The notes below the pieces were generated by a model. It was not told where the DNA came from and searched no databases. It saw nothing but the letters and a program-made list of their open reading frames with translations. DNA of 64,000 nucleotides. Source: Candidatus Omnitrophota bacterium (lineage in GTDB: Bacteria > Omnitrophota > Gorgyraeia > Zapsychrales > Fredricksoniimonadaceae). Shown in pieces: positions 12,504 through 58,757 of this stretch (its first letter is position 1; every line of letters starts with the position of its first letter). A program made the position numbers and the translations under genes. Where the stretch lies: positions 11,364 through 75,363 of the forward strand of contig CAIOPG010000017.1 of NCBI GenBank assembly GCA_903860135.1. Direction: 5' to 3'.

Positions 12504-13733
12504 TTACTTGGAAATATTCCTTGCAACTGCCCGTGCGGCGGCGATGGCGCTTGACCATGCCCACTGTAGGTTGAAACCACCGATACGACCATCCACATCC
12601 AGGACTTCCCCGGCGAAATACAGACCTTCCTGTAAGCGGGACTCAAGCGTTGCGCCTTTGAGCTCTTCAAGGTCAACGCCGCCAGCTGTGACTTCGGCCT
12701 TAGCGTAGCCTGCGGTATCACCAACAGGTAACGGGCATGCGCGCAGGGACCGCTGCAAGGCGCGGCGCTCGTCCACACGCAGTTCACCTGACGGACGGAG
12801 CGGATCAACCTTGGCCAATTGAGCCAGGACAATAACAAGCCGTTCGGGCAAGTACGCGGTCAGGATATTCTTGATACTGCGCCGATTCCCGGGAATAATA
12901 ACAGTACTGATATCCTCCCCTTTAACCGTTGGCAAGAAATCAGCACGGATCTCAACCGGCCCCTGCGCCATGGCCTTAAGCCACGGTCCGGCCACCTCCA
13001 TGGCCGCCGGGCCGCTGAACCCCTGATGCGTAAAAAGGAACGGTCCTTCAACCGACAAGAGTTTTTTCCCGCCGCCCCACAACGACAAACGCACCGGCGA
13101 TGTGATCCCGCCCAGCGTGGCAAAGCTGTCATCTCCGGCGAATAAGGCGACCAAGGCGGGATGTGCGGGAACAAGGCGATGCCCGAAATTCCCGGCAAAA
13201 ACATAACCGCTGCCATCAGAACCAGTCGCGGGATAAGAAAGACCGCCCGTGGTTACAAGAACCTTCCGGGCTGACCTTAAGAAATCATGGCCGACCACAT
13301 TGAAACCAGTGCCTTCAGCCGCCAGTGAAATAACCCGGCGGCCGCATTCAATCACAGCCCCATAATGCCGTGCGGCGCGCACAAGGGCATCGCGCACCGT
13401 CGATGCCTTGTCGTCTGCCGCGAAGAATTCTCCGGAAGGCTGGACGGCCAAAGGAGCTCCCAACGCCTCAAAGAAAGCCACCGCGTCGTGCGGCGAGAAG
13501 GTTTGAAGGACATGCCGCAAGGTATGTGCGTTGCCGGCATGGAAATCTTTTGCTGTCACGCGCGCATGGGTCGCGTTACAGCGACCGCCCCCCGTGATAA
13601 GCAGTTTTAAGCCCGGCTCACGCTGGCCTTCAAGGACCAGCACATTCAGCCCAAGCCTGCCCGCCTCCGCCGCGGCCATAAGCCCTGCCGCTCCGGCGCC
13701 AATAATGATCAGGTCATATGCTGTGGCCGTCAT
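12504..13733 (-). CDS. HI0933/YhiN-family FAD-dependent oxidoreductase
   Basis: YDLIIIGAGAAGLMAA Rossmann FAD motif followed by TGGGRCN, as in the BaiN/HI0933 family. Overlaps the upstream dehydrogenase stop by 4 bp. Confidence 0.8.
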   Translation of the reverse strand: MTATAYDLIIIGAGAAGLMAAAEAGRLGLNVLVLEGQREPGLKLLITGGGRCNATHARVTAKDFHAGNAHTLRHVLQTFSPHDAVAFFEALGAPLAVQPSGEFFAADDKASTVRDALVRAARHYGAVIECGRRVISLAAEGTGFNVVGHDFLRSARKVLVTTGGLSYPATGSDGSGYVFAGNFGHRLVPAHPALVALFAGDDSFATLGGITSPVRLSLWGGGKKLLSVEGPFLFTHQGFSGPAAMEVAGPWLKAMAQGPVEIRADFLPTVKGEDISTVIIPGNRRSIKNILTAYLPERLVIVLAQLAKVDPLRPSGELRVDERRALQRSLRACPLPVGDTAGYAKAEVTAGGVDLEELKGATLESRLQEGLYFAGEVLDVDGRIGGFNLQWAWSSAIAAARAVARNISK

Positions 13734-15061
13734 AACCGCCAGTACCGGAGGCGGGATCCTTTAAAACATTCAGGATCAAAAAGCCCTTTCACATCCACGA
13801 CAACCCCCTTGCCTTTCGCCGAAGCCAGGTGGGCTTTGAGTACGGCCGGGGTCAGGATATCCTTAAACACCGCGTGATTAACCGCAATGACAATGCCGTC
13901 CAGTTTCATGTTCCTGTTGTACGTCACCAGCTCCACCGCGTATTCTGCCCTGACCTCTTCCTTGTCCGCCAAGGGATCAGCCGCAAGGACCTTAACCCCG
14001 TATTCTTTCAGTTCATTAATAATATCAATGACCCGGCTGTTGCGGATATCCGATACATTTTCCTTGAACGTGATGCCCAGGATCAGCACCTTGGCGTCCT
14101 TGACGGCTTTGCCTGCCTCGATCAACAGTTTCACCGTCTGCTGGGCGATATACTGGCCCATGCTGTCATTGATGCGGCGGCCGGCGAGGATAACCTGCGG
14201 ATGATAGCCGATCTCTTCGGCCTTGAATGTCAAATAATACGGATCAACACCAATGCAATGGCCGCCCACAAGGCCGGGATTCATCTTGATAAAATTCCAC
14301 TTGGTACCGGCCGCCTCCAGAACAGAGCGGGTATCAATGCCCATTTTGTGAAAGATCAGGGCGAGTTCATTCATGAGCGCGATATTCAGGTCGCGCTGGG
14401 TATTCTCGATAACCTTGGCCGCTTCGGCAACCTTGATCGATTGCGCCCGAAAGACGCCGGCCTTGACCACCAGGCTGTACACAGCGGCAACATCGTCGAG
14501 CGTCGCCGCATCACAGCCGGACACCACTTTGACAATACGGGTCAGGGTATGTTCCTTGTCGCCGGGGTTAATGCGTTCGGGGGAATACCCCACCTTGAAA
14601 TCCCTGCCGCACACCAACCCTGAATATTCCTCGAGGATCGGGACACAAACATCTTCGGTAACGCCGGGATAAACCGTTGACTCATACACAACCGTACTGC
14701 CCTTGGCCAGATGCCGCCCCACCAGTTCCGACGCACGCTTCAGGCAGGCCAGATCCGGGATCTTGTTGATCGTGATTGGTGTCGGGACCGCCACAATGAT
14801 GAATTTTGCCTTCCGGAGCAGTGCGGCATCATCGGTAATTGTCAGGAAAGCAGACCCGTTGAGTGCCTCCGCCGACATCTCGCCGGTATGATCATGGGCT
14901 TTCCTGAGCGCCGCGACCCGCCTGGCGTTGACATCAAAGCCAATGGTCTGGAAATTCTTCCCAAACTCAACAGCCAAAGGAAGCCCCACATATCCCAGCC
15001 CGACCACCGCGATTTTTTCTTTCCCGGTACTGATCTGTTCCGCTAATGTCATGATGATCAC
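13730..15061 (-). CDS. Nucleotide-sugar dehydrogenase (UDP-glucose/UDP-GlcNAc 6-dehydrogenase family)
   Basis: N-terminal NAD motif IAVVGLGYVGLPLA and the catalytic-Cys region GGHCIGVDP. 443 aa. Confidence 0.85.
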   Translation of the reverse strand: MIIMTLAEQISTGKEKIAVVGLGYVGLPLAVEFGKNFQTIGFDVNARRVAALRKAHDHTGEMSAEALNGSAFLTITDDAALLRKAKFIIVAVPTPITINKIPDLACLKRASELVGRHLAKGSTVVYESTVYPGVTEDVCVPILEEYSGLVCGRDFKVGYSPERINPGDKEHTLTRIVKVVSGCDAATLDDVAAVYSLVVKAGVFRAQSIKVAEAAKVIENTQRDLNIALMNELALIFHKMGIDTRSVLEAAGTKWNFIKMNPGLVGGHCIGVDPYYLTFKAEEIGYHPQVILAGRRINDSMGQYIAQQTVKLLIEAGKAVKDAKVLILGITFKENVSDIRNSRVIDIINELKEYGVKVLAADPLADKEEVRAEYAVELVTYNRNMKLDGIVIAVNHAVFKDILTPAVLKAHLASAKGKGVVVDVKGLFDPECFKGSRLRYWRL

Positions 15062-15092
15062 CTTTTTATACAGGTCTTGTTAAGGCCACGAT

Positions 15093-15150
15093 CAGCCCGC
15101 TTATACTTTCACCCGCGACAGCCAGGATTTGTTCTCCAGGTACCATCGGA
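15093..15150 (-). pseudogene. Remnant/duplicate of an epimerase gene 3' end (encodes ...KIRWYLENKSWLSRVKV*), one copy of a ~58-bp direct repeat
   Basis: About 50/58 nt identical to 18715-18772, which is the true 3' end of the epimerase gene (VQWYLDNKAWVSRVKV*). It sits immediately downstream of the stop of the giant gene. Confidence 0.55.
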
Positions 15151-15155
15151 TTTTA

Positions 15156-18100
15156 TCATTGCTTCAAAAATTGTAGCAAATTATCCATGGGTACAATATC
15201 GTGAATAATAGGCGTAAAACCTGGCGCGTCGATGTATTGCTTCAGCATCATCGGATCCGGAGCGAATTGAAGAAAGGCTTCCTGCGGACCTGATGCTACG
15301 GCCTGTGCGGCACGGTTTAAATCAATACCGCCGTCACGCGCAACAGCGGCTTGATCAAGATTAGCTATCGTGGCTCTCACCAAAGGCTCAAGATAACCGA
15401 AATCAATCGATGCGATCTCTTGACTGAAATACTTGTTCAACAGCAAAATATGCGGCACATAAAAAGAGATAGGATTCGGAAACTGCCCTTCAAACAACTT
15501 TTTTACTAAAGATGCAACAGATTCAACCGCGTATTGACGCCAATTGGCTCCAAAATCTCTTCCCTCGATCGGCTCAGCCACCCATAAACGATGAAACTGC
15601 TCACTATCACCGCTGATTACTGCTAATAAGACCTGCATGAAGATCAATTCTGCCTGGCTACTAAGAGAACGCGAACTTCCAACCTCGTGACGTATTTTAA
15701 ACAAAACACGCTCAATAAGTATCTGACTTAAAGACATCGTATTAATATTACCCGCGATTATGTAGTCGGTCCAATAGAGAGACTTCTCCTTCTCTGTAAA
15801 ATAAAAGCCATAGTTATCCCCATAAACCTCTCCTAATAAATTAATATAAAATCGATTATGTCTTGAAAAAAAGAAGCCTGGCACTCTTTCGGAAGCACCG
15901 GCAAGTTCCTGCGCGGCACCCTCCTTAAAAACATGGAACACGCGCACCCGATGATCATCAGCCGCTTGTTCAAGCCCGTATTTCTTTATGCTCGCTTTAG
16001 TATCGCTCCCACGCATAAATGCAGAATAATACTTAGCCTGAATAACCTGCTCCTGATGCAATTGTTCCGTCACAGTAACAAGATCCTTGATCTCCCGCCC
16101 TTGAACGCGTAACATTTCTTTGGCATGATCGTCATCCACCGAAAAGACCCATACAATATTTTTCGGCAGATCCTTGAACATGGCGCGTGCCGCATCTATG
16201 TTCTGCGGGACAAGGATCCCGTTGGTGATCACATATACTTCTGTCGCGGCTGTTGACGCGGCTTTAAGGACTTCAATAAAATCTTCTGACAAACCGCCTT
16301 CGTTCATTTTCTTTTTGCCAAAAACCATAGTCTCACCGGGGCCGAGCAGGCGGATGCGATCAGCGCCATGCACCATGTCTATCCTTCTCAGTATCTCCTC
16401 TTTCGAAAGTTCTCCGTTAGACCCAGCCTCCTTGCGCAGATTGGCTGCAATGCACATAGGGCAGTTGAACGGACACCGGGCTGTCAGCATCAGGCTGAAA
16501 TCATTCCTTAGCGAAGCTTCGTAAGGATAAAGAAAATTGATCAACTCAAAGGCTCTTGTAACAGGAGATTTCTTTTCCTCCTGTTTAAGAACCTCTGCTT
16601 TCATATGGGGGATATCAATAAGATCCAACACGCTTGTGACCATCGACTTCCCGGATGTTGTTACTCCTTTGGGAATCTCCACGGTCCTAACAAGTTCCTG
16701 AAATCCCTGAAAACGGCGCTCGATCAATACCTTCCAAAATAATCTTTTCTGCTCGGAGGGTTTATACCTTTTACTGCTCGACAGGCATTTCGACAGAGCC
16801 TCAGAAGTTAAGAAAGACTCCTGCCTTGAAAGGTAAGCGATAAATGCTTTGCTATCATTTATTTCTTTCAAAAGAGATCCGAACTCGTAACTTGTATTGA
16901 AATCAACCGCTGGAATAGGTAAACGGGGGCGCTGGTTATCATCATCATTTGAAAAACCCTCTTGCATTAAAAGCATGGCCAACACCGGGAACATTGAGGT
17001 TCGATATTGCTCGTATATCTTCATGTAATCATCACGAGAAAGATGGTTACGTTCCCTGTCATTAGGAAAAACAAATGTAAGTCGCGTATTCCAAGGCATA
17101 TCTGATAGTGATCGTCCTTGTTGATTGAAATAAGACTGCAAAGCTCTCTTGATATCCTTCTCATTAAGATATGGTGTCATGATCGAACGAACAACTATTT
17201 CCTGATACACCGCCCAAACAGATTTCCAACTATCGTCGGCATCGCCTGCAAGTTCCCAAAGGCCACTACTTACAAGGTAATCATGGAACATTTCAGGAGT
17301 TAAATGCAACAAATGCCGCTTGGCATCCCTCAGTTTTATCGGATCAAGCGTATCCATTGCATTGAGCCAGCCAACCACATCATTGGGGGCAATGACCGCT
17401 GCCTCGGCACGGTTTGCTCCCGCATGAACAAGTTGAAGCCCGGGGATGGTATTGACCGCCTCAGGGGGAATCACGTTAATTGGGGTGTTATCCGCCCCCA
17501 GGACAATCCCTCCTGAAAAATATTTCCTCGGCACCATCTCCCCGTCCAGAGGATCGCGTTCTTCACGGACAAGATTGACTTCTCCCCGGTGGAATGCCTC
17601 AACATAACGCGCCCATATCTTCTCCGGCATTTTCAGGTCATCAATATCCACACCCGCCACTTTATTGCGGCTCACATACGTTCTTTCCAAAATACTGCCC
17701 CTGACCTTGCGTTTATACCACCCGGCAAGGATCACGGCATAACAAATCTGGCGAAGCCGCGCAAAAGCCCTGTCCTGATTGACCGCACGTTCAAGCTCTG
17801 GTAAAACAGCTTCCCTTAAGACTTGAGCTGCCAGATCCATTGCTTTTCCGGAAACGACCTTACTGGCTTTCGTGAGAACAGAATGTTCAAGGGCGGCATA
17901 ATCACTTTCCAGCATGACCTTCAGATGACAACCAGCCACATACACGCGATCCTTGTTTTCGGACACACGCGCCTCATCGGGGATGATCCAGACTTTGTTA
18001 AACACATCCAAGGGGATATCCGTTGTGCCAAACTTCTCAAAAGCCCTGGCGTATATCTTTGCCCAGAAAGCCTTGCCCGACGTCACGTCAGGGTGCAGTA

Positions 18101-18524
18101 GCCGTGATGCCACTTGTTTCAAGGTAAGATCCTGGTCCAAAAGATCGCGGCCCATTTCTGTCCTGCCAAAAGCCGGGGGCATAATGCGCCCTTTTTCATA
18201 GGGGCTGAGGTTAACCCATAGATCACCATCGGGCACCGTGAGCGCTGTCAGGAAATATTTGATCGCACGATTAGCTTCGGCGTTTAATCCAGGCACAGCC
18301 ACCGACGAACCAGGATCGAGGATAAAATCAAACTCCAAGGGATCATCCAAATGAACTTTCAACCCCCGTAATAATGGAAGATTATCCGCCAAGGCCGTAA
18401 CCGGACGGATCGAAGGAAGCATAGCGGGGATCCCTTGGGCCAAAGCTGGTGGCACAAGGCTGGTTGAGATAAAAGCCAGAAGTACCCCCACGCATAAAAT
18501 TCTTTTGATCAACAAACTAACCAT
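15156..18524 (-). CDS. Giant (~1,122 aa) low-GC protein with N-terminal Sec-type signal peptide and an embedded radical SAM core; function unknown
   Basis: The track ORF begins at a GTG codon (18531-18533, reverse strand); the ATG at 18522-18524, codon 4 of that ORF, is the likely start, preceded by the SD AGGTGAGGGGG. N-terminus MVSLLIKRILCVGVLLAFISTSLVPPALA|QG has an AXA cleavage site. Mid-protein CPFNCPMC (CxxxCxxC), then LLGPGETMV (GGE-like) and VYVITNGILV (TNG motif). GC is about 38-40%, versus 52-62% in neighbouring genes. Confidence 0.85.
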   Translation of the reverse strand: MVSLLIKRILCVGVLLAFISTSLVPPALAQGIPAMLPSIRPVTALADNLPLLRGLKVHLDDPLEFDFILDPGSSVAVPGLNAEANRAIKYFLTALTVPDGDLWVNLSPYEKGRIMPPAFGRTEMGRDLLDQDLTLKQVASRLLHPDVTSGKAFWAKIYARAFEKFGTTDIPLDVFNKVWIIPDEARVSENKDRVYVAGCHLKVMLESDYAALEHSVLTKASKVVSGKAMDLAAQVLREAVLPELERAVNQDRAFARLRQICYAVILAGWYKRKVRGSILERTYVSRNKVAGVDIDDLKMPEKIWARYVEAFHRGEVNLVREERDPLDGEMVPRKYFSGGIVLGADNTPINVIPPEAVNTIPGLQLVHAGANRAEAAVIAPNDVVGWLNAMDTLDPIKLRDAKRHLLHLTPEMFHDYLVSSGLWELAGDADDSWKSVWAVYQEIVVRSIMTPYLNEKDIKRALQSYFNQQGRSLSDMPWNTRLTFVFPNDRERNHLSRDDYMKIYEQYRTSMFPVLAMLLMQEGFSNDDDNQRPRLPIPAVDFNTSYEFGSLLKEINDSKAFIAYLSRQESFLTSEALSKCLSSSKRYKPSEQKRLFWKVLIERRFQGFQELVRTVEIPKGVTTSGKSMVTSVLDLIDIPHMKAEVLKQEEKKSPVTRAFELINFLYPYEASLRNDFSLMLTARCPFNCPMCIAANLRKEAGSNGELSKEEILRRIDMVHGADRIRLLGPGETMVFGKKKMNEGGLSEDFIEVLKAASTAATEVYVITNGILVPQNIDAARAMFKDLPKNIVWVFSVDDDHAKEMLRVQGREIKDLVTVTEQLHQEQVIQAKYYSAFMRGSDTKASIKKYGLEQAADDHRVRVFHVFKEGAAQELAGASERVPGFFFSRHNRFYINLLGEVYGDNYGFYFTEKEKSLYWTDYIIAGNINTMSLSQILIERVLFKIRHEVGSSRSLSSQAELIFMQVLLAVISGDSEQFHRLWVAEPIEGRDFGANWRQYAVESVASLVKKLFEGQFPNPISFYVPHILLLNKYFSQEIASIDFGYLEPLVRATIANLDQAAVARDGGIDLNRAAQAVASGPQEAFLQFAPDPMMLKQYIDAPGFTPIIHDIVPMDNLLQFLKQ

Positions 18525-18721
18525 CCCCCTCACCTTTCATCAATGAAGAAGTGTTATATTTATTACGGCAATAGGACAAATCATGGGTAATAAACGAATT
18601 GTGCGCTGATTATTAAGACTATTAAAAAAATCCGAGATTAAATGCTATCCACCTGAACTTCAGATATAACCATAACATTTAACCCGCATTCTTTCAATAC
18701 GGGTTCTGCGCAACAGCCCGC
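18525..18721 (-). promoter_or_regulatory. AT-rich (~190 bp) upstream region of the giant gene containing its RBS and probable promoter
   Basis: The only long AT-rich intergenic tract in this gene string. Strong SD (AGGTGAGG) 6-7 nt before the ATG. On the minus strand there is a possible -35/-10 pair, TTGAAA-N17-TATGGT (about 18669-18697). No experimental support. Confidence 0.4.
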
Positions 18722-18772
18722 TTATACTTTCACCCGCGATACCCAGGCTTTGTTGTCTAGGTACCATTGAAC
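18715..18772 (-). repeat. Second copy of the ~58-bp direct repeat (the intact 3' end of the epimerase gene)
   Basis: cagcccgcttatactttcacccgcga.a.ccagg.tttgtt.tc.aggtaccat..ga is shared with 15093-15150. Confidence 0.6.
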
Positions 18773-19690
18773 TGTCCGGCGAACGCCTTCGTCGAGCCCG
18801 ATCTTCGGCTTCCAGGCCAGCAGGCGTCCGGCTTTCTCGATATTTGCCCACGTGGCTTTGATGTCCGTCTTGTGGAAAGCTTTCTCCTGGCGCGTCGAAG
18901 GCTTGCCGAGGTATCGCTCGATAAGGGCGATGGCTTCATTCAAGTCATAGGGACGATTCCCACCCAGGTTGATCGTCTCAAAACCGACCTTCTTCAGCGC
19001 CTTGATGGTGCCGTCGGCAATGTCATCGACATAAGTGAAATCACGGCGCTGGGTCCCGTCACCAAACACCTCCATGGCCTTGCCTTCATCGATCCACTTG
19101 ATAAAGCGGAAAATGCACATGTCCGGGCGTCCCGCTGGACCGTAGACCGTAAAATAACGCACCACCGACACATCGATTCCGTAAAGATAGTGGTACGTAT
19201 ACGCCATCACTTCTGCCGCCTTCTTGCTCGCGGCATAGGGTGAAATCGGCGTATTGACCGGAAGATCCTCGTTGAAGGGCATCTTCTGACCGGCGTAAAG
19301 CGATGATGTTGACGCCAGGACAAATTTCTTCACCTTGTATTCCCGGCAAAGCTCCAGGACATTGAGCGTCCCGTTGGCATTGGTCGTCATATAAATAAAA
19401 GGATTTTCCATGCTGTAACGCACGCCGGCACGCGCCGCCAGGTTCATCACGGCATCAAAAGCATGGGTTTTGAAAATACGTCGCAGAAAAGAAATATCTT
19501 CAATATCCCCCTTGTAGAATGTAAAGCCGGGATACTTCTTCAACGCTTTCAGCCGGAACTGTTTCAGGCGCACATCGTAATAATCATTCATGTTATCCAC
19601 TCCGACAACATGAACCCCTTGCTTGAGCAGTTTCTCGGCGGTACACGCCCCAATGAACCCTGCCGCGCCAGTCAATAAGATCGTTTTCAT
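18722..19690 (-). CDS. NAD-dependent nucleotide-sugar epimerase/dehydratase (UDP-glucuronate/UDP-GlcNAcA 4-epimerase-like SDR)
   Basis: ILLTGAAGFIGACTAEKLL Rossmann motif and the YAASK catalytic motif of extended SDRs. 322 aa. Confidence 0.85.
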   Translation of the reverse strand: MKTILLTGAAGFIGACTAEKLLKQGVHVVGVDNMNDYYDVRLKQFRLKALKKYPGFTFYKGDIEDISFLRRIFKTHAFDAVMNLAARAGVRYSMENPFIYMTTNANGTLNVLELCREYKVKKFVLASTSSLYAGQKMPFNEDLPVNTPISPYAASKKAAEVMAYTYHYLYGIDVSVVRYFTVYGPAGRPDMCIFRFIKWIDEGKAMEVFGDGTQRRDFTYVDDIADGTIKALKKVGFETINLGGNRPYDLNEAIALIERYLGKPSTRQEKAFHKTDIKATWANIEKAGRLLAWKPKIGLDEGVRRTVQWYLDNKAWVSRVKV

Positions 19691-19698
19691 AGCTATCG

Positions 19699-21348: not shown

Positions 21349-21352
21349 ACGT

Positions 21353-22774: not shown

Positions 22775-22777
22775 GTA

Positions 22778-24430: not shown

Positions 24431-24453
24431 ATAACCCTTTCCATTTATTCCAG

Positions 24454-25098
24454 CTACCGTAGTTTTCGCCCAAGAAGATACAGCGGCACCGCCTTGCCCG
24501 CAAAATTTTCCATATAGCTTCTTTGCCCCTGAAACAAAAGCACGAAGCCGTTCTTTTGAAAAAAGTCAGCGCCAGCCGATGACATGGTGCCCAGATGAAC
24601 CCCCTTCACCCCTGCTTGCGTGAAAGCTTCCACCAGTGTCCGGATCAAAGCCCCTCCTGCCCCATGCCCCCGACGATCCGCCTTGAGGTTAATATGAAGG
24701 ACCGCCGGATAATCTTCGCTGAAAGACGGCATAAAAAACTCACCCTTTAGAAAACTGGCGGCAAGACCGCCGAGCAACTTCATATTTCTGGGACGCAACA
24801 GGAGCCCCTGGCCCAGGGCATCAACACAAAGGCCGGGAATGATCTTGGTCCAAACAACCCTGTCCATTTTCTTCTCGTCCCTGGCCCCCAGAATATATCC
24901 GGCAACAACCCCGTCCACTTCAAACACCCAGATGCTTTCGGGTTCATGATCCGTAAAATACAGTGTTAATGCATCTTTCAAGAATTCCTGGCCTTCAAAG
25001 AAAACAGCGGCACTGGCGCCCATAAACGCGGTTTCAAAGGCAATCTGCCGGACAGCACTGCGGTCAGTCAACCGGTAAGGACGGATCACCGGATTCAT
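24454..25098 (-). CDS. GNAT-family N-acetyltransferase
   Basis: Acetyl-CoA binding region ...HINLKADRRGHGAGGALI... (R/Q-x-x-G-x-G/A). 214 aa. Overlaps the upstream PIG-L gene by 4 bp. Confidence 0.75.
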   Translation of the reverse strand: MNPVIRPYRLTDRSAVRQIAFETAFMGASAAVFFEGQEFLKDALTLYFTDHEPESIWVFEVDGVVAGYILGARDEKKMDRVVWTKIIPGLCVDALGQGLLLRPRNMKLLGGLAASFLKGEFFMPSFSEDYPAVLHINLKADRRGHGAGGALIRTLVEAFTQAGVKGVHLGTMSSAGADFFQKNGFVLLFQGQRSYMENFAGKAVPLYLLGRKLR

Positions 25099-26483
25099 GG
25101 CAGTTCCAAGACGCGCCAGGCGGTTTCATCAAGGGTCAGATCATAAACAGCCGTCTTGGCACAACTGAACACGTATTGCGGATCACCGAGCAAAGATAAC
25201 GGCACCTTGAAGATCATTTCCTTGCCTTTATCCAGAAAAATAACTTCAGCTGAAGCAATCGTGCGTTTCTTATCTTTAACATGAAACCCGTTCAGGCCGA
25301 CAATGAGGCTGATCTTGGGCATTTGGCCGTAAGGCGTTTGACGGCTGTACCCCATCAGGGAAACCGACATCCCCAGGTCTTTATCCATCACCCGTTTGAG
25401 AACGACGCGGATGACCAGGTAATTTCCCTGCCGCGCATAAGCAAGCTGGGTAAAATGTTCGGTTTCAGCACTCTTGACACGATTTTTGACAGAGGCATGA
25501 ATAGCAAGATCCGTCCAGGACAACTCGGTATCTGACGCCAGCTGACGCGGCAGAACGATCGCAGGGAAATTACCAAAGATCTCGTTCCGTCGGGCAAAAG
25601 TGACCAGGTAACGCGGCGCATATTTGATCTGGGAAGGATACTCCAGTATGGCATCAAATTTCTTTCCGATCTCCGATGTGTCCAGCGGCTGCTCGATCCA
25701 CCTGATCCCTTTCTTGTCAAAGCCCGGAGGGATTGACAACTGAAGTTCAGGATGATACCCCCGCAGTAACGGCCACCCGGCCACATGAATGATATAGGGA
25801 AATACCTCGGGAGGCGCGATGCCCATCTGCGTGGCGAGGTCCCATAGTGCCACCTGCATAAAAAGATAAAGCGCGCGATGATCCCTGTTCACATCAGCCG
25901 GATGCGACACAAATATCTTGGTCGGCTTAAACGCGGCAATGACCTGTTCCAGATCTTTGAGGATATTTTCTCCAACATACGCCGCGCCCGGTGAAACCGC
26001 TTCCTGATACGGGACTTTATTGACCCTAGAAAGCATACTGCGAAAAGGCTTTGTTTCCCCCCAGTATTTCAGGAAGATCTCCATCGTGCCGTAATCTGGA
26101 TAGCCCAGAGAAATAATATCTTCAGGGCGTACACCCAGCACGCGCATGGCATCGACGCTTTCCTGACGGCGCACCTCGCCCAGGCGAAGAAATTCTTTGG
26201 GTTTAAGCACAAGCCGCCGCTCGTACACAATAAAAGCGAACTCATTATTCTCGCCATTGGTGAAAAGGCATACCCGCGTAGCGGCACCGGCTTTCAGGGC
26301 CTGTTGCAATACCCCACCGGTAGCGATGGTCTCATCATCCGGGTGCGGCGCAAGGACAAGCACCCGGTCGGCCGCAGAAAAGCTGATAGCCGACGGCAAT
26401 GCCTCGGCATCCTGGGCATAGCCCGGGACACCCATGAAATAGACCGAACATAAAATAAATAAAGCAATTTTGCAAAAGGACAT
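25095..26483 (-). CDS. Exported PIG-L/LmbE-family de-N-acetylase with C-terminal extra domain
   Basis: Signal peptide MSFCKIALFILCSVYFMGVPGYAQDA. LVLAPHPDDETIATGG is the PIG-L (A/S)HPDDE zinc-deacetylase signature. 462 aa. Confidence 0.8.
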   Translation of the reverse strand: MSFCKIALFILCSVYFMGVPGYAQDAEALPSAISFSAADRVLVLAPHPDDETIATGGVLQQALKAGAATRVCLFTNGENNEFAFIVYERRLVLKPKEFLRLGEVRRQESVDAMRVLGVRPEDIISLGYPDYGTMEIFLKYWGETKPFRSMLSRVNKVPYQEAVSPGAAYVGENILKDLEQVIAAFKPTKIFVSHPADVNRDHRALYLFMQVALWDLATQMGIAPPEVFPYIIHVAGWPLLRGYHPELQLSIPPGFDKKGIRWIEQPLDTSEIGKKFDAILEYPSQIKYAPRYLVTFARRNEIFGNFPAIVLPRQLASDTELSWTDLAIHASVKNRVKSAETEHFTQLAYARQGNYLVIRVVLKRVMDKDLGMSVSLMGYSRQTPYGQMPKISLIVGLNGFHVKDKKRTIASAEVIFLDKGKEMIFKVPLSLLGDPQYVFSCAKTAVYDLTLDETAWRVLELP

Positions 26484-26552
26484 AGTAATATCGAATATTG
26501 TTTTTTGAATCCGTTATTTTAACGATTCCCCCTCATTTTTACCACTACTATC

Positions 26553-27674
26553 TCAATCTCTGCTCCGGGGACGTTCTGCTGACTGGTGCGGAAGTGTCAG
26601 GCTTTCTGCCAGGGCTGGATTATCTTTCAAATTACCATAATAAAAAACAAGGCAGGCCCGGGCGCCTGATTGCTCACAAACGCTGAACTGCTCGCCAAAA
26701 ATAGCCGGTGTTTTAATGAATTTATAAGCCCCGACACACATATTAACCTTCGTGAAATCAACCACATGCTCCCGCACCTCGGCCATTTGCTCGATAAAGT
26801 CCGGCACATTATCCGGATAACTCATCACCGAAACAAATTCGACAAGGCCATCATTGACCCAGGAAGGCCAGTCCTGAAAAGCCTCATGATACGCCCTGAA
26901 GTATGACATGCACCCCGTCGTGGAAATATGAATATCCGGATGAATGGCCCGGGCTCGGGCAACGAGCTGACGAAGAAGTCCCGTCACCTGGGCGCGTTTC
27001 CAGTTTTGCCACGCCGGGGTTGCCTCACGGAAAGACATGACCCGCACAACTTTCCTGAAACGTTCCAGATTGGCGCACGTATACCCGTAAGCCGGTTTTG
27101 CGTCTGGATAACGGATATAATCAAATTGGATACCATCGAGCTGAGGATACCGCAGCAACAATTCACCGGTCATCGCCTCCAGTTCCTTGCGCACACGCGG
27201 ATCCCCCGGTTCAAGGAAATATTGGCCGTCGATCTTGTAATCCTCCAGCTTTTTCTTGGCGACCACATTTCTGGTCAGGATCCGACAGCCATACTTCTTT
27301 AACAAAGGTGCCTGCGTATTGGTACTGAGGCTCAGCAAGTTGACCCACGCATGCACCTCGATGCCCGCCGCATGCGCTTTACGGATGAACAAGGCAACAG
27401 GATCTTCTCCCACAGCCTCTAAGGCACGCGCATAAGGTGCCGCATCGCCAACGCGCGAAGGAAACCATGCCTGATTTGCCCGGTAGACTTGCAGAAAAAC
27501 GACCGTTATCCGCGCTTGCCTGGCCAATGCCACCACATCGTCCATCGCCTGTCGACTTGAAAGTACGGGCTTCTTTTCAATAAGGCTGACAAAAATACCT
27601 CGCCCTGTGGCTGTACCCGCCTGCGCTGTCCCGGCGATAAGTATGAGGGTGCTCACCATGATGGCTCCCACCAT
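26553..27674 (-). CDS. GHL10/UPF0748 (YddW-like) putative glycoside hydrolase, exported
   Basis: TIM-barrel-like motifs (VVFLQVYRANQAWFPS, GIEVHAWVN). The start was moved to the internal Met (MVGAIMVSTLILIAGTAQAG) that gives a signal peptide. Confidence 0.6.
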   Translation of the reverse strand: MVGAIMVSTLILIAGTAQAGTATGRGIFVSLIEKKPVLSSRQAMDDVVALARQARITVVFLQVYRANQAWFPSRVGDAAPYARALEAVGEDPVALFIRKAHAAGIEVHAWVNLLSLSTNTQAPLLKKYGCRILTRNVVAKKKLEDYKIDGQYFLEPGDPRVRKELEAMTGELLLRYPQLDGIQFDYIRYPDAKPAYGYTCANLERFRKVVRVMSFREATPAWQNWKRAQVTGLLRQLVARARAIHPDIHISTTGCMSYFRAYHEAFQDWPSWVNDGLVEFVSVMSYPDNVPDFIEQMAEVREHVVDFTKVNMCVGAYKFIKTPAIFGEQFSVCEQSGARACLVFYYGNLKDNPALAESLTLPHQSAERPRSRD

Positions 27675-27723
27675 GCCTTGGGCCCCGTAGCCGTTGGCGG
27701 GATACTTGGCATGAACAGGACGA

Positions 27724-29520
27724 TTATTTAACAGGAACATCACGCCCCAGCTTACGCTGAATGTCCCGGATCATCCCACTAAAACGTGCGTCCGCAGGCG
27801 CCAGTGCCAGGCCCTTTTCAAGCCAGGCAAGGCTTTCGGCGTAACGCGCTTCATTGGCCAGCATAACGCCCAGCAGTAAATAGGGCTCAAGGTACTGCGG
27901 ATCCATCGCCTGACACCGTTCAAGCATGGTCCTGGTCTTTCCGGAAATTCCATTGTCAAAAAAGATATAACATAGTTGAAAAAGATCCTGCTGACTTGTT
28001 CCTTCGCGGACAAGCGTGCGCATGATCTCATCTGCCAGGGCAACATCCCCATTCTTTTCATACGCCACTGCCAGCTTGCAAAGAAGAATACGTTTTTCAG
28101 GCGCGCGTTTTTCAGAACGCACCAGCAGTTTGATCACACGGATAGCTCTGGCATTGGCATTGATCTTCAAATGCCAGTCCGCCAGGAATGACATTTGTGA
28201 AATAAGCGGTTCCTGGATCTCCATATCTTTTTCAAAAGAAAAAAGCCCCTCGAGGGTTTCCAGAGCGATCGTATTGTTCGGGGACTTATTCAACCAGTTA
28301 AGGCAATAACTGATATCATTGCGCCCGACGGGAATATGCCGGAATGTCATGGCAAGCAAAAAGATCGTAATAGCCGTAATAAAAGTAACAAAAAGATACT
28401 TGTTACAAAACCCCTGCATCCGCTGGATCGCTGACGCCACGATCAGGAAAAACCCGATAGACGAAAAGTAAAACCAGTAGGGTTCAACCACAAACCCCAT
28501 CTGCGGACGGCATATCGATCCGGGGATAACAAATAAAAGTCCACTCATAAAGACGGCCAGTCCTAGGCCTTCCGTATTCGGCTTGGGGTTACGCCATATC
28601 AGCCAGCAAAAACTAGCCGTAAAAGAAACGCATGCCATATTCCATAGCCAGATAAAGCTCTTGACCGGTAGCATATTGAACATAAAAACAATATCAGTCG
28701 GGAGGAAAAGATTGCTGATATACCACTTGATCAAAATAAAGAAATTCGCCACAAAAACCCAAAAGGTCAAATGAAAAGAATGCGCCCTTTCGAGCATGCT
28801 CGTCTTTGAACCAGCCAACCACAACCACGTAATGACACATACCCCTGTCAACAAGATGAACGGCAGGCAAAGGCGCAGGGTTTTCTTGACATCAGCAGTC
28901 CTGTAATAAAGAAAAGCAGCGGCATAAAAGATAAAAAACCACGAAACCTCCTGAAACAAAAGCGCGACAAAGAATGACGCAAGGCTCAGCCCATAAAAAA
29001 CATGGTTCTTGCTTTGTTCAATATGTTTGTACAGAGCGATGAGGCTTAATTCCATGAAAATGACACTGAACAGGATATTATTGAATGCAATATGCATCAT
29101 CACTTCAGCACTCATGGGATGCATACAAAAAAGCAGGCTTGTGCCCAGCGCGACAAAATATTGCCGGGTGAAAAGGAAGATAACAACGAACAATAAATAA
29201 CAATTAATGAAGAAAAGAAAGATATTGATACCATACAGCGGCCCCGCCTCTTTAAAAAGAGAAAAAAGAATGCCGTTGGTCAAATTATACAGGGGTTCGA
29301 AATGATGCGTGCGGGCAAAAATAAGCCCCGGCTCCCTGAATATCCGGGATACTTCATGAAAACGCAGAAAAAAGAAATCATCCCCCAGGAATTGATGCTG
29401 CAAGACCGGGGTGTACACTAAAAGGCACAGGACAAATAACAATGCCGCGGGCAAAAATATTTTTATTCTTTCACTAATAAACATGGGTGTCAGTATATTA
29501 CATTGCACCCGCTTGTCCAA
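27724..29520 (-). CDS. Polytopic membrane protein with C-terminal TPR repeats (TMTC/PMT-like GT-C candidate)
   Basis: Roughly 11 predicted TM segments in the N-terminal 430 aa. C-terminal TPR-like repeats (…KLAVAYEKNGDVALADEIM…YLLLGVMLANEARYAESLAWLEKGLALAP). GC is about 38-42%. Confidence 0.75.
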   Translation of the reverse strand: MDKRVQCNILTPMFISERIKIFLPAALLFVLCLLVYTPVLQHQFLGDDFFFLRFHEVSRIFREPGLIFARTHHFEPLYNLTNGILFSLFKEAGPLYGINIFLFFINCYLLFVVIFLFTRQYFVALGTSLLFCMHPMSAEVMMHIAFNNILFSVIFMELSLIALYKHIEQSKNHVFYGLSLASFFVALLFQEVSWFFIFYAAAFLYYRTADVKKTLRLCLPFILLTGVCVITWLWLAGSKTSMLERAHSFHLTFWVFVANFFILIKWYISNLFLPTDIVFMFNMLPVKSFIWLWNMACVSFTASFCWLIWRNPKPNTEGLGLAVFMSGLLFVIPGSICRPQMGFVVEPYWFYFSSIGFFLIVASAIQRMQGFCNKYLFVTFITAITIFLLAMTFRHIPVGRNDISYCLNWLNKSPNNTIALETLEGLFSFEKDMEIQEPLISQMSFLADWHLKINANARAIRVIKLLVRSEKRAPEKRILLCKLAVAYEKNGDVALADEIMRTLVREGTSQQDLFQLCYIFFDNGISGKTRTMLERCQAMDPQYLEPYLLLGVMLANEARYAESLAWLEKGLALAPADARFSGMIRDIQRKLGRDVPVK

Positions 29521-29578
29521 TAAAAAGGACGATCTTGTTCATCTGGTTAGCCGGCCTTAAGAAAACTCCCCTTATATC

Positions 29579-32110
29579 TTGCGAAGGATAACAAAAACCT
29601 ATAAAGTAAAGCCTATGAAAAAACAAAATCCTGCTAAAGTGATCGCTTGGTTCATCTGCGCCCTCATCGCCCTGTGCATCGGCCTTTACTTCCGGCTTTA
29701 TCCTTTGTACCACAATGTGGCTTCTGACGCCTACGAGCAAGCGACCATGCTGGTTCTTGCCAAAATGCGCGCTGATATTGCGGGGCAAATCTCCAGTGCC
29801 TATCCGACTCTACCACCTGCCCAACAGCAACGGATCATCCAGGAACAGTTAAACCAGGCCCTCCGGACACAAAAAACAAAACTGCACGAGACGTTTGACA
29901 AAGTAAGCCGGGAAATACTCAAAAAGACCGGTGAGACCCGTCATTACCTTCAGGAATCCGATTCTTACTATTTTCTCGACCTGACACAAAACATCCTTGA
30001 AAAAGGCGATGTGAGTACCCAGGTGAACGGCAGTCAATATTTTAATAACCGCATGCTTGCCCCCATCGGCTACTGGGAACCGCAGACATGGCACCCGTAT
30101 ATCGGTGCATGGGTCTACAAAGCCGCAAAAGCATTGAACCCGGATATCGACGTCATGCGGGGCGTTGCGTTCACACCGCTGTTCCTTTTTCCTTTCATCC
30201 TGGGTGCTTTTTTCCTGGCCTGCCGTGCCTTTGGCTGTCAATGGCCTGCGGCTTTCACCGCATCGATCTTTTTCGCCCTTGCCCCCATTTACCTCCAGCG
30301 CAGTACCTATGCCTGGTATGATAACGACTCCTACAGCGTTTTATTCCCCCTGCTCAACATGGGGCTTACAGTCCTGGCATTAAAGTCGCTGGATAACACA
30401 CGCAAAGCCCTGATCTGGAGCGTTCTCGCCGGACTTTCGTTTGCCCTCTTCGCCCGCTTCTGGACCGGATGGAGCTTTTCCTGGGGCATCGCCATGGCCG
30501 CGCTCAGCCTCATGACCGTACGCGCCTATTTCTTTAAAGAACCGCGTCGCCACAATCTTGCCCTGGTGCTTCTCATGACCGGTGCCATCACCCTGACCTG
30601 TCTCACGGCCATGATCGGCTTAAACCAGTTCCTCGCCCTTTTCCCTCTGGCCGCCCAGGAACTCGGCAAATTCATTGCTCCCCGGCTCAAGGACTGGCCG
30701 GACCTTTTCATTGTTGTCGGTGAACTTCGCCGCGGTACAATGGCTGAATCTGTCATGCTGACCGGTGGTCCTGTTGTTTTTTATGGTGCCCTTGCCGCTT
30801 TCTTCATTTACGCCCGCGAGGCGGTCATCAAACATAAAAGCCCGTCGAATGCCATACTCCTGCTGGCTTTCTTTACAGGTGCCACCTTCCTGCTGGCCTT
30901 GAGTGCCGAACGCTTCGCGCTTCTTCTGTTAGCTCCGCTTTCCATTGCTTTTGCGGTTGCCCTCGAACAACTCTGGCAACGGCGCCGGCTCTGGGCAGAA
31001 AGACTCAAACTCCCCAATCAAACCATGGCCAAATCTTTGCTGTTACTATTTTTTATGGGAACCATCATCCCGTTGACAGCAACAAACCAGAATATCGCTT
31101 CATTCCTGCATCCCATCTTCAACTCCGCCTGGGACCGCGCCCTGACAGCCCTGCGCGAGAAGACACCCGAAAACAGCGTCATCAACACCTGGTGGTCTCC
31201 CGGGCACTTTGTCAAAGCTATCGCGCGGCGCAGCGTCACCTTCGACGGCGCATCCATTAAAGGCGAACAAGCCTACTGGCTGACAAAAGTTTATCTGAGC
31301 CCCAATGAAGAAGATGCCCTGGGGATCCTGCGTATGCTTAACACCAGCTCTAACCAGGCGTGTGAATGGTTGCAGGCCCTTGGCTGGCCGGTATCACGCG
31401 CCACAGCCTTGCTTGAAACGATCACACGCATGCCGCGCACCGACGCCAGCCATTACCTGAACGGTATCCTGAGCCCGGTGCAAGCCGCGGCCTTGCTTAA
31501 ACTGACGCATGGCACGCCGCCGCCTTCTTATCTGCTTATCTATAACGAAATCGTGGAAGGTAATGTCCTGCTCGGTTATGTCGGTAAATGGGATTTTACC
31601 CGCATCGAACAATTAAATGCCACCCCCGCCGCACTGAAAAAGATCCCCTCCCGGAGTTCCAAGAATTACATCGACTTCCTCTGGAGCTTAGTCGGCGGGC
31701 CGCTTCGCCAGAGCGAAACACTTTCCCCTGCCGGACGCAATGGCTCCAAGATCCTTTTTGACCAGGGCATGATCCTCGACACCGCTGATATGACGGTCGA
31801 GATCAATTCCCCCAAATTCGGCCGTGGCATCCCTGCGTCGGTGGTTTACCTGGACCCCGCCACCAACCGTGTGCAACAAAAAACGCTCCCCAACGCCACA
31901 ATGAGTTATAGTGCGGTGATCTTCAAGGACAACAACAACATCCCCCACGGCGTGCTCATGGATTCGTTGCTGGCCAATTCACTCATCATGAAATTGTATT
32001 ATTTTAACGGCCAAGGCCTCACGTATTTCAAACCTTTCGCCAAGGAACAAGACCTGAGTGGCCGCACAAAAATCTTGATCTACGCCGTCCAATGGCCGGC
32101 GGGATTTTGA
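29579..32110 (+). CDS. STT3/PglB/AglB-like oligosaccharyltransferase-family membrane protein (degenerate WWDYG motif)
   Basis: 843 aa with a multi-TM N-terminal half. At about residue 540, INTWWSPGHFVKAIARRSVTFDGASIKG is collinear with PglB [23 protein letters not shown] (WW-xx-G…V…T..DG). Divergent from the rest of the island. Confidence 0.7.
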   Translation: MRRITKTYKVKPMKKQNPAKVIAWFICALIALCIGLYFRLYPLYHNVASDAYEQATMLVLAKMRADIAGQISSAYPTLPPAQQQRIIQEQLNQALRTQKTKLHETFDKVSREILKKTGETRHYLQESDSYYFLDLTQNILEKGDVSTQVNGSQYFNNRMLAPIGYWEPQTWHPYIGAWVYKAAKALNPDIDVMRGVAFTPLFLFPFILGAFFLACRAFGCQWPAAFTASIFFALAPIYLQRSTYAWYDNDSYSVLFPLLNMGLTVLALKSLDNTRKALIWSVLAGLSFALFARFWTGWSFSWGIAMAALSLMTVRAYFFKEPRRHNLALVLLMTGAITLTCLTAMIGLNQFLALFPLAAQELGKFIAPRLKDWPDLFIVVGELRRGTMAESVMLTGGPVVFYGALAAFFIYAREAVIKHKSPSNAILLLAFFTGATFLLALSAERFALLLLAPLSIAFAVALEQLWQRRRLWAERLKLPNQTMAKSLLLLFFMGTIIPLTATNQNIASFLHPIFNSAWDRALTALREKTPENSVINTWWSPGHFVKAIARRSVTFDGASIKGEQAYWLTKVYLSPNEEDALGILRMLNTSSNQACEWLQALGWPVSRATALLETITRMPRTDASHYLNGILSPVQAAALLKLTHGTPPPSYLLIYNEIVEGNVLLGYVGKWDFTRIEQLNATPAALKKIPSRSSKNYIDFLWSLVGGPLRQSETLSPAGRNGSKILFDQGMILDTADMTVEINSPKFGRGIPASVVYLDPATNRVQQKTLPNATMSYSAVIFKDNNNIPHGVLMDSLLANSLIMKLYYFNGQGLTYFKPFAKEQDLSGRTKILIYAVQWPAGF

Positions 32111-32171
32111 TTAATCTTGTTTTTTAATTTTTTTTTGTTAATATAGTTTCTGTTCTTAAAATAGCTTATTT

Positions 32172-32247
32172 GGGTCGGTAGCTCAGTTGGGAGAGCGCCT
32201 CGTTCGCAATGAGGAGGCCGTGGGTTCAACTCCCATCCGATCCACCA
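32172..32247 (+). tRNA. tRNA-Ala (anticodon CGC)
   Basis: Cloverleaf folds as GGGTCGG acceptor / GCTC…GAGC D-arm / CCTCG-TTCGCAA-TGAGG anticodon arm / GTGGG-TTCAACT-CCCAT T-arm. It has the G3:U70 Ala identity pair and an encoded CCA. Confidence 0.9.
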
Positions 32248-32262
32248 TTTGATACAACAAAA

Positions 32263-32296
32263 AACCTTGTTCCAGACGGAGCAAGGTTTTTTGTTG
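32263..32296 (+). terminator. Rho-independent terminator after tRNA-Ala
   Basis: aaaaccttg…(12-nt loop)…caaggtttttt: a 7-9 bp stem followed by a T-run. Confidence 0.55.
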
Positions 32297-32423
32297 GTTT
32301 CAATACCAAAGAGAGGGGACGCCCTTCCGCTTTATCCCACGAGGCCACGCACCCCAAAGTCTTCCTGGCCCCCGCCAGCAAAGAGCGTATCCCGGTGATC
32401 GGGCGCCCCCCCTTATTTATAGC

Positions 32424-56433: not shown

Positions 56434-56442
56434 GCCATCCCC

Positions 56443-58756: not shown

Positions 58757-58757
58757 A

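Follow-up and report, generated by a model that had tools for sequence, protein, structure and literature searches.

Several kinds of described systems come close to the locus analysed here. Amino sugars are attached to lipid A by ArnT/ArnD (L-Ara4N), by LgmB/LgmC in Bordetella (GlcN) and by FlmK/NaxD in Francisella (GalN). Synthase-dependent exopolysaccharide systems include PgaCD/PgaB, Bcs, Pel and hyaluronan synthase with hasB, and a deacetylase and a hydrolase are the usual accessories in Pga, Pel and Bcs. Among glycosyltransferases of the GT-C type, the oligosaccharyltransferases of the STT3/AglB/PglB family use the aspartate in WWD of the WWDYG motif to read the +2 Ser/Thr of the sequon. 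The Omnitrophota are uncultured, very small bacteria, and some of them may live on other cells or prey on them. The eukaryotic O-mannosyltransferases TMTC1-4 are characterised by the motifs M1 (DD), M2 (SHKSYRP), M4 (KE(T/Q)) and M7 (ERxxY), with the K of the KE motif and the R of the ERxxY motif assigned to phosphate binding (PMC7801869).

The window, which is the whole 64-kb stretch of DNA analysed, contains the locus described here (Table 1). Open reading frames, Pfam and ARAGORN bear out the gene content of the original prediction in coordinates and families, including two genes for sugar-acid supply and the exported enzymes for tailoring, and the three membrane proteins it had proposed as GT-C enzymes all belong to this class. 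Eleven co-directional genes on the minus strand (12504-29520) are joined by a divergent STT3-like gene, which is followed by tRNA-Ala(CGC) and a strong terminator. As neighbouring genes of the array are separated by no more than 188 nt and overlap by up to 20 nt, its description as uninterrupted holds. From the TMTC-like gene through the epimerase gene, neighbours overlap or are no more than 69 nt apart, and this tight packing argues for co-expression and is compatible with functional coupling in the source lineage. The genes that flank the locus have housekeeping functions; among them are a Kdo/Lpt operon (KdsA-D-like, LptC/A, LptB) and UppS, and therefore lipid A and undecaprenyl phosphate are available. 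An ArnC/GtrB-type polyprenyl-phosphate sugar synthase, a flippase or an initiating phosphoglycosyltransferase was not found in the locus.

Table 1. Features of the locus, with positions in the 64-kb window.
Feature	Position	Strand	Basis
HI0933-like / aminoacetone-oxidase-family flavoprotein	12504-13733	minus	Pfam HI0933_like 3.7e-72; TIGR00275 368 bits
Nucleotide-sugar 6-dehydrogenase	13730-15061	minus	three UDPG_MGDP_dh Pfam domains
Relic copy of epimerase 3' end, 54 nt	15093-15146	minus	right-hand scar of insertion
Exported modular protein, 1125 aa	15156-18533	minus	signal peptide; weak Radical_SAM match 1.3e-4 (Pfam)
Second 54-nt repeat copy	18714-18767	minus	within true 3' end of epimerase gene
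SDR-type nucleotide-sugar 4-epimerase/dehydratase-family enzyme	18722-19690	minus	Pfam Epimerase 3.5e-61
Membrane GT2, processive-synthase type	19699-21348	minus	Pfam Glyco_trans_2_3, 31 bits (cut-off 27)
Single-pass PEGA-domain membrane protein	21353-22774	minus	Pfam PEGA 4.3e-11; one N-terminal TM helix
ArnT-like GT-C transferase	22778-24430	minus	Pfam PMT 2.5e-17 and PMT_2
GNAT acyltransferase	24454-25098	minus	Pfam Acetyltransf_1 1.4e-7; no signal peptide
Exported PIG-L/LmbE-family de-N-acetylase	25095-26483	minus	Pfam PIG-L 4.1e-23
Exported GHL10-family glycoside-hydrolase-like protein	26553-27743	minus	Pfam GHL10 4.9e-31; signal-like N-terminus
TMTC-like GT-C, ~11 TM helices and C-terminal TPR domain	27724-29520	minus	GT-C fold
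STT3-family GT-C	29579-32110	plus	Pfam STT3 5.2e-18, 66.2 bits (cut-off 24.5)
tRNA-Ala(CGC)	32172-32247	plus	ARAGORN
Intrinsic-terminator-like hairpin and U-run after tRNA	32255-32297	plus	dG -29.1 kcal/mol, z -8.9

The transferase predicted as GT39 ArnT/PMT-like is indeed a GT-C enzyme with ArnT/PMT likeness, but its closest relative is ArnT, which we take to be CAZy GT83, so that the GT39 label does not stand. It matches the ArnT structure 5ezm over residues 5-471 (E 1.2e-28) and keeps the ArnT motif blocks PDE..YA..EM, FEKP, LTKG, HW.R..S..H.RS..YF and SKL..YI.P..PAL, with a score of 177.9 bits that lies below the cut-off of 567 for the NCBIfam ArnT equivalog. Homologues with 40-68% identity were found in 80 species genomes, nearly all of them Omnitrophota. 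A deacetylase abuts the ArnT-like gene in 40 of these 80 loci (CE4 in 29, PIG-L in 13, both in 2), and in the other 40 no deacetylase lies alongside; at one locus (L067) a PIG-L-like match next to the ArnT-like gene was missed by the clustering of open reading frames and detected by tblastn. Both kinds of deacetylase carry N-terminal export or anchor segments, which in the PIG-L protein of the window is a hydrophobic stretch with an AQ cleavage-like site, and this protein has an additional C-terminal domain of ~200 aa. That two unrelated deacetylase families alternate beside the ArnT-like gene points to a functional pair. The GNAT gene adjoins the ArnT-like gene in 13-14 of the 80 loci, and in 9 of the 80 a homologue of the flavoprotein is encoded ~0.6 kb downstream of the ArnT-like gene; in the window the flavoprotein and dehydrogenase genes share 4 nt.

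As in the lipid A amino-sugar systems, an ArnT-family GT-C with conserved motif blocks is paired with a de-N-acylase in an organism that makes Kdo-lipid A, as its Kdo and Lpt genes within the window show. Unlike in these systems, the locus has no homologues of ArnA/B/C/E/F (Pfam, NCBIfam) or LgmA-like genes, a presumably cytoplasmic GNAT is included, and the deacetylase, predicted to be extracytoplasmic, is not ArnD or YdjC but PIG-L, or a CE4 enzyme in other Omnitrophota. Since this CE4 enzyme is more like PdaB/PgdA/NodB than like ArnD, the acceptor could be other than lipid A. In the mechanism that we propose for this module, the ArnT-like enzyme would take a HexNAc-type sugar from a polyprenyl-phosphate carrier at the periplasmic face and move it to an acceptor in the envelope that carries phosphate, with lipid A or the LPS core as the likeliest candidates, and the exported PIG-L protein would de-N-acetylate the sugar before or after the transfer, giving a cationic amino sugar.

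A second module is formed by the GT2 and the PEGA protein. The GT2 has TM helices at both ends and a match to PgaC/IcaA (NCBIfam, 1.7e-6), and its motifs FDADT, SDDS and QKRRW are invariant among 20 homologues. It is conserved across the phylum Omnitrophota, with 2813 homologues and at least 52% identity among the 120 matches listed. As no relative of it could be detected by sequence in the PDB, the name processive synthase is based on motifs and weak family matches. The PEGA protein, with a large C-terminal extracytoplasmic region, is probably the partner of the GT2: its gene directly precedes the GT2 gene in six relatives (L001, L004, L005, L008, L084 and L085), and the pair has the same arrangement in two distant genomes, where its neighbourhoods are unrelated. 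In L085 the GT2 gene is followed by a TIM-barrel glycoside-hydrolase-like gene (weak Pfam Cellulase/GH10, plus Glyco_hydro_42), and in L001, the closest relative, by an Acyl_transf_3 gene and the genes for epimerase and dehydrogenase, which are 87% and 83% identical to those of the window. The dehydrogenase is closest to the UDP-GlcNAc 6-dehydrogenase TviB (NCBIfam, 487 bits, with 592 required for the equivalog), and none of the matches of the epimerase to NCBIfam GalE, RmlB and TviC reaches its cut-off. With synthase-dependent exopolysaccharide systems the locus shares a GT2 with DxD, a base of the (S/T)DD type and QxxRW, a gene for a periplasmic partner, a neighbouring sugar dehydrogenase, and an exported deacetylase and hydrolase. 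It differs from them in that the partner is a PEGA-domain protein, PIG-L and GHL10 are used and not CE4 and GH153/GH166/GH8, the GT2 is too divergent for a PDB match, and none of the 12 proteins contains an outer-membrane export porin or c-di-GMP receptor domain (Pfam, NCBIfam). We suggest that the QxxRW GT2 and its PEGA membrane partner may work together as a processive synthase, polymerising a polysaccharide and exporting it, that the TviB-like dehydrogenase and the epimerase may supply HexNAc-uronic acid in the source lineage, and that the exported GHL10 protein, which is an accessory there, may be an add-on hydrolase.

The remaining two GT-C enzymes might glycosylate periplasmic or surface acceptors. 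Like TMTC1-4 (PMC7801869), the TMTC-like protein combines a multi-TM GT-C domain with a C-terminal TPR domain: consensus TPR proteins match its residues 483-591 (1e-5; Pfam TPR matches are below cut-off), and a structure model contains a helical repeat from ~405 to 579. The DD, (H/Y)xxPL and W.Y motifs and the Glu of KE are also conserved, with the DD pair kept in at least 90% of the family and the Glu invariant. Unlike TMTC1-4 the protein is bacterial, belongs to a small family (16 matches, with variable contexts among relatives) and has no Pfam DUF1736 match, and in the subfamily of the window the K of KE is replaced by Q and the R of ERxxY by P. The protein of the window reads HHFEPL, QE and EPYWFY, with Arg/Lys positions substituted; distant members keep YRPL, KE and EHWLY.

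The STT3-like protein is of the same family and length class as STT3/AglB/PglB, and its family profile matches human STT3A (8e-14) and AglB (5e-6). Its 40 homologues are mostly from Omnitrophota. In an alignment of 20 of them D128, E382 and R445 never vary, and D248 is kept in 18 and D250 in 19. The EL1 Asp, the DxD, the EL5 Glu and the Arg that binds pyrophosphate can all be aligned to the motifs of human STT3A. WWDYG, however, is replaced, by WWSPG in the window, and position 540 is S in 11, P in 8 and A in 1 of the 20 and never D; with the WWD aspartate missing, it is therefore probable that the clade does without the N-X-S/T sequon. The C-terminal block YIDFLW (697-702) is conserved and resembles what is presumably the DINKFLW region of STT3A, although it lacks the Lys, and a DK/MI motif is not recognisable. 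In relatives the gene lies between PIF1 and a TPR-PilMNO-T2SSK-pseudopilin operon, this type II secretion/type IV pilus-like operon abutting it in 4 of the 5 relatives examined, and small GT2 genes and a UDP-GlcNAc 2-epimerase gene adjoin it. That this clade has kept the catalytic machinery, lost the Ser/Thr-reading WWD pocket and now glycosylates a different acceptor signature is a tentative idea to which we give a low probability; the acceptors may be the pseudopilins of the abutting operon or a non-protein acceptor. Omnitrophota and STT3 or oligosaccharyltransferases were never named together in the literature searched.

Regarding base composition, the original prediction of a mosaic was right for two genes with lower GC, but with about 40% it overstated the deviation: GC is 46.8% in the gene for the 1125-aa protein and 44.9% in the TMTC-like gene, compared to 49.5-58.9% in the remaining genes of the locus. 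The TMTC-like gene is close to normal in GC3 (52.8%) and normal in its choice of synonymous codons, and amino-acid composition therefore accounts for most of its low GC. At synonymous sites the 1125-aa gene alone stands out (GC3 47.7%, 3 SD below the background of 60.6 +/- 4.1). The protein, which the original prediction had left without interpretation, consists of a conserved N-domain (~345 aa), a variable middle with a weak radical-SAM-like CX3CX2C region, and a conserved C-terminal motif (~60 aa); only the two termini are common to its 7713 representative homologues. The gene is bracketed by a 54-nt direct repeat (91% identical, spacing 3621 nt), it is absent between the epimerase and dehydrogenase genes of L001, and its GC3 is low; together these findings show that a member of a modular, multicopy gene family was inserted here at a later time. 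It is the only clear insertion of the locus.

A tRNA at one edge, low GC in two genes and a gene content that differs between relatives would fit a horizontally acquired island integrated at tRNA-Ala, but this is now largely refuted and we regard it as extremely improbable. Domain searches revealed neither an integrase nor a transposase among the proteins of the locus and its flanks, and an att-like repeat of the tRNA 3' end was not found within the window, where the 24-mer of this end, searched with up to 3 mismatches, matches only the tRNA itself. The flanks are housekeeping genes, the homologues found are almost all from Omnitrophota and 11 of the 12 genes show native synonymous codon use. 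The same tRNA-Ala(CGC) is located downstream of the STT3 gene in four of the five relatives examined (L081, L082, L083 and L091) and is therefore an ancestral neighbour of STT3. The region is a native core chromosomal locus of an Omnitrophota genome.

As to its function, we consider it a little better than an even chance that several independently conserved envelope-glycan modules are packed around the ArnT-like gene and probably do not form one pathway. In the single system originally proposed, all genes would serve one polymer: an acidic HexNAc-uronate chain made by GT2 and PEGA would be branched in the periplasm by the GT-Cs with polyprenyl-phosphate sugars, partly de-N-acetylated by PIG-L and trimmed by GHL10, with the TPR domain organising the complex. 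The packing of the 11 genes, the distance of 3 nt between the ArnT-like and PEGA genes, the position of the ArnT-like gene directly upstream of PEGA-GT2 in five relatives (L001, L002, L004, L005 and L008) and the presence of the usual exopolysaccharide accessories are consistent with this, but it is in the closest clade alone that PIG-L, GNAT, ArnT-like, PEGA and GT2 make up a conserved core, and outside it the ArnT-like gene and PEGA-GT2 are unlinked. At a distance of up to 10 kb from the ArnT-like gene, none of the 80 loci has an STT3 or GHL10 homologue and one (L002) has a TMTC-like homologue; in relatives the three GT-C genes are located at different sites. PIG-L follows the ArnT-like gene and not GT2 in the distant genomes L059, L065, L070 and L073, and an outer-membrane export component is absent from the locus; a single pathway thus seems unlikely to us. 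A conserved core locus of known function, named at the outset as an outcome that would speak against a new system, was found in part: the core is conserved in the closest clade, but no known function goes with it. N-linked protein glycosylation of the PglB type, in which the neighbouring genes would build a lipid-linked oligosaccharide for the STT3-like enzyme, could draw on the Pfam match with its conserved catalytic residues, on the sugar-nucleotide enzymes close by and on the small GT2 and UDP-GlcNAc 2-epimerase genes beside STT3 in relatives. We nevertheless regard it as quite improbable, because WWDYG is WW(S/P/A)PG in all 20 aligned homologues with no recognisable DK/MI region, pgl-like oligosaccharide assembly genes are missing near the STT3-like gene (the locus has no initiating phosphoglycosyltransferase, flippase or GT-A/GT-B series), and the genes of the locus are unlinked to STT3 in relatives.

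The reading as separate modules on a native locus corrects a tempting misreading, as a tRNA and a patchy GC profile are not enough to make an island. The locus offers concrete, testable candidates for the surface chemistry of Omnitrophota. Among them is the PEGA-GT2 synthase pair, with a GT2 conserved across the phylum and the pair kept in distant genomes, and the ArnT-like/deacetylase pair, with its two alternating partner families, may place a cationic amino sugar on the envelope. The STT3 clade, if our idea is true, would bring a new acceptor specificity to the family of oligosaccharyltransferases, and with its altered acceptor-binding motif it could be of use to glyco-engineers seeking new oligosaccharyltransferase specificities.

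The original prediction had described the locus as a mosaic glycosylation island bounded by a tRNA-Ala gene, and its gene list and coordinates were borne out by ORF listing, ARAGORN and Pfam. Read from 12504 towards 29520, the minus-strand array encodes an HI0933 flavoprotein, a sugar 6-dehydrogenase, an exported modular protein of 1125 aa, an SDR epimerase, a GT2, a TM-PEGA protein, a PMT/ArnT-like protein, a GNAT, a PIG-L, a GHL10 and a TM+TPR (TMTC-like) protein. A hairpin with a U-run (dG -29.1 kcal/mol, z -8.9) lies 3' of the tRNA-Ala(CGC). A promoter/terminator scan gave 25 promoter-like and 38 terminator-like matches against 19.0 ± 4.6 and 24.0 ± 6.0 expected from shuffling, an excess of at most about 2.3 SD with most matches being intragenic, and it was left out of the operon definition. 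The apparent gap after the tRNA contains a SpoVG-family gene of 88 aa and a listed 112-aa plus-strand ORF without family match, and neither Pfam nor NCBIfam gives a match for the 593-aa ORF immediately to the left of the locus.

Positions in the window of the features discussed
Feature	Position	Strand	Basis
593-aa ORF	10676-12457	+	
Array of 11 genes	12504-29520	-	ORF listing, Pfam
HI0933 flavoprotein gene	12504-13733	-	
Direct repeat, relic copy	15093-15146		
1125-aa gene	15156-18533	-	
Direct repeat, epimerase copy	18714-18767		
SDR epimerase gene	18722-19690	-	
ArnT-like gene	22778-24430	-	
TM+TPR (TMTC-like) gene	27724-29520	-	
STT3-like gene	29579-32110	divergent from array	
tRNA-Ala(CGC)	32172-32247		ARAGORN
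SpoVG-family gene	32424-32690	-	Pfam 9.2e-16
SNase-like gene	33883-34479	-	
UppS gene	48085-48810		
Kdo/LPS-transport operon	55711-61350	-	

As the window flanks consist of housekeeping genes (fumarase, citrate synthase, BioB, RuvB, ScpA, TrpRS, IF2, NusA, Dxr, CdsA and UppS), the locus lies in the core chromosome, and the Kdo/LPS-transport operon (PfkB-family kinase, KdsB-, KdsA-, KdsD-, KdsC-like, LptC/LptA-like and LptB-like) together with UppS indicates that the organism makes LPS and undecaprenyl phosphate. The proposed island at the tRNA did not hold up: no integrase or transposase is present, and a search of the 64 kb for att-like repeats, using the 24-mer of the tRNA 3' end and allowing up to three mismatches, found no second copy. 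Moreover, tRNA-Ala(CGC) also lies downstream of the STT3 orthologue in four relatives, closely so in L081, L082 and L083 (orthologue identity 76, 49 and 59%) and at a distance of 0.9 kb in L091 (46%), which makes it an ancestral neighbour of STT3 rather than an integration site. The GC mosaic stood with regard to its two low-GC genes but not to the figure of about 40%, since we measured 46.8% for the 1125-aa gene and 44.9% for the TM+TPR gene (other locus genes 49.5–58.9%, window background 53.4 ± 2.4%). With 52.8% GC3 and ordinary synonymous codon usage, the TM+TPR gene owes its low GC to its hydrophobic amino-acid content.

The sole synonymous-site outlier in the locus is the 1125-aa gene, with a GC3 of 47.7% against 60.6 ± 4.1 and a synonymous-codon likelihood about 2 SD low. 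It is exactly bracketed by a 54-nt direct repeat of 91% identity, one copy being the genuine epimerase 3' end and the other a relic of the same end, which encodes WYLENKSWLSRVKV* and shows three amino-acid differences. In a close relative (L001) an Acyl_transf_3 gene comes after the GT2, and the epimerase and dehydrogenase genes that come next have no 1125-aa gene between them. Repeat, absence and deviant GC3 together identify a 3.6-kb insertion, and the form of the repeat suggests that the gene entered by recombination with a diverged allele. Its product bears a signal peptide (ALA-Q site). The family to which it belongs is very large, counting 7713 cluster representatives at E<1e-3 and, of these, 5929 at E<1e-30, and the matches listed are 441–4875 aa long; only the first ~345 residues and a ~60-residue C-terminal motif (GGIDL...PVI..I.P...L..FLG) are common to its members, and the middle region is variable. 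The searched passages of two preprints on Omnitrophota giant proteins contain no description of its N-domain family.

All three membrane proteins are GT-C enzymes, as had been predicted. Nearly the whole ArnT-like protein aligns with ArnT (5ezm; 1.2e-28), and every ArnT block that can be recognised is conserved, although the protein reaches only 178 bits in the NCBIfam ArnT equivalog against a cut-off of 567. Scanning one genome per species with this protein gave 80 loci (40–68% identity), nearly all from Candidatus Omnitrophota MAGs and one from Ca. Velamenicoccus archaeovorus, which has a complete genome. We compared the neighbourhoods of these loci both by tblastn of all window proteins and by independent clustering of every ORF there. 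A five-gene conserved core, PIG-L-GNAT-ArnT-like-PEGA-GT2, is limited to the closest clade; it is complete in four loci (L001, L004, L005, L008), in L005 with housekeeping genes directly on either side, and in L002 it is present as far as the contig reaches, into the beginning of PEGA. Across all loci the gene most often found next to the ArnT-like gene encodes a 250-aa CE4 polysaccharide deacetylase and lies directly upstream (29/80; Pfam 5.7e-37; seen among L009–L074, e.g. L028 9238-9990). This enzyme resembles PdaB, PgdA and NodB rather than ArnD and, like PIG-L, begins with a segment for membrane anchoring or export. PIG-L adjoins the ArnT-like gene in 13 loci and both enzymes occur in two, so that a deacetylase is paired with the transferase in 40 of the 80; the use of two unrelated families in one position is good evidence that transferase and deacetylase function together. 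The commonest downstream neighbours in other Omnitrophota are homologues of the SNase-like (16–17/80) and HI0933 (9/80) genes, which here occupy the two edges of the locus, and this fits growth by accretion around the ArnT-like gene.

The GT2 is very well conserved (2813 matches, at least 52% identity among the 120 listed), and in distant genomes a PEGA gene stands directly ahead of it in unrelated contexts. Neither the single sequence nor a 20-sequence profile gave a significant PDB match, thus its assignment as a synthase rests on motifs. The sugar dehydrogenase matches TviB with 487 bits, below the cut-off.

The STT3-like protein scores 66 bits with Pfam STT3. Aligning a 20-homologue profile with human STT3A matched the first-loop Asp (ESDSYY), the D-x-D/E motif (WYDND), the loop-5 Glu (VGE) and the pyrophosphate-binding Arg (R445); D128, E382 and R445 are invariant among the homologues. 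WWDYG is replaced by WWSPG, with Ser, Pro or Ala but never Asp as the third residue in 20/20 homologues, which makes it unlikely that this clade would read N-X-S/T. In four relatives (L081, L082, L083, L090; ~12.5–22.5 kb each) the STT3 orthologue comes after a PIF1 helicase, and a TPR-PilMNO-T2SSK-pseudopilin-T2SSF operon runs convergently to it; between orthologue and operon, L081–L083 have a small GT2 plus a further large membrane protein, and L081 and L083 also a UDP-GlcNAc 2-epimerase. The window's GT-Cs have no close homologues among the 532–565-aa membrane proteins next to STT3 in relatives. Homologues of the TMTC-like protein occur in variable contexts, two of three (L088, L089) adjoining N_methyl pseudopilin genes and L089 having an array of several GT-C-like genes. 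This proximity of both proteins to pseudopilin genes hints at pilin glycosylation. In the literature searched we found no paper linking Omnitrophota with STT3 or oligosaccharyltransferase.

A single glycosylation system using all three GT-Cs, as originally proposed, is not supported, since their genes lie apart in relatives: among the 80 loci GHL10 and STT3 homologues are never near the ArnT-like gene, and the TMTC-like gene is so only in L002. The tight spacing within the array (20-nt overlap at the closest, 188-nt gap at the widest) is compatible with the main rival, that the modules cooperate in this lineage. The locus contains neither a donor-forming GT2 nor a flippase or an initiating transferase. 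Among known systems we could rule out an O-antigen or ECA locus (no Wzx, Wzy, WecA or Wzz), a true arn operon (ArnA/B/C/E/F absent) and membership in Pga or Pel (accessory families differ, porin absent).

The locus is best read as native, grown by accretion and composed of separable modules, with all substrates inferred. In Module A the ArnT-like transferase and an extracytoplasmic de-N-acetylase would attach an amino sugar to lipid A or to some other phosphorylated acceptor in the envelope, for which the ArnT/ArnD, LgmB/LgmC and FlmK/NaxD systems are analogues. Module B would be a polysaccharide synthase formed by the QxxRW GT2 and its PEGA partner, here probably fed by the TviB-like dehydrogenase and the epimerase, and the TMTC-like and STT3-like GT-Cs of Module C may modify acceptors in the periplasm or at the surface. 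The locus thus varies on GT-C and synthase-type envelope systems that are already known, in a phylum about which little is known, and the STT3 clade with WW(S/P)PG is what stands out most in it.
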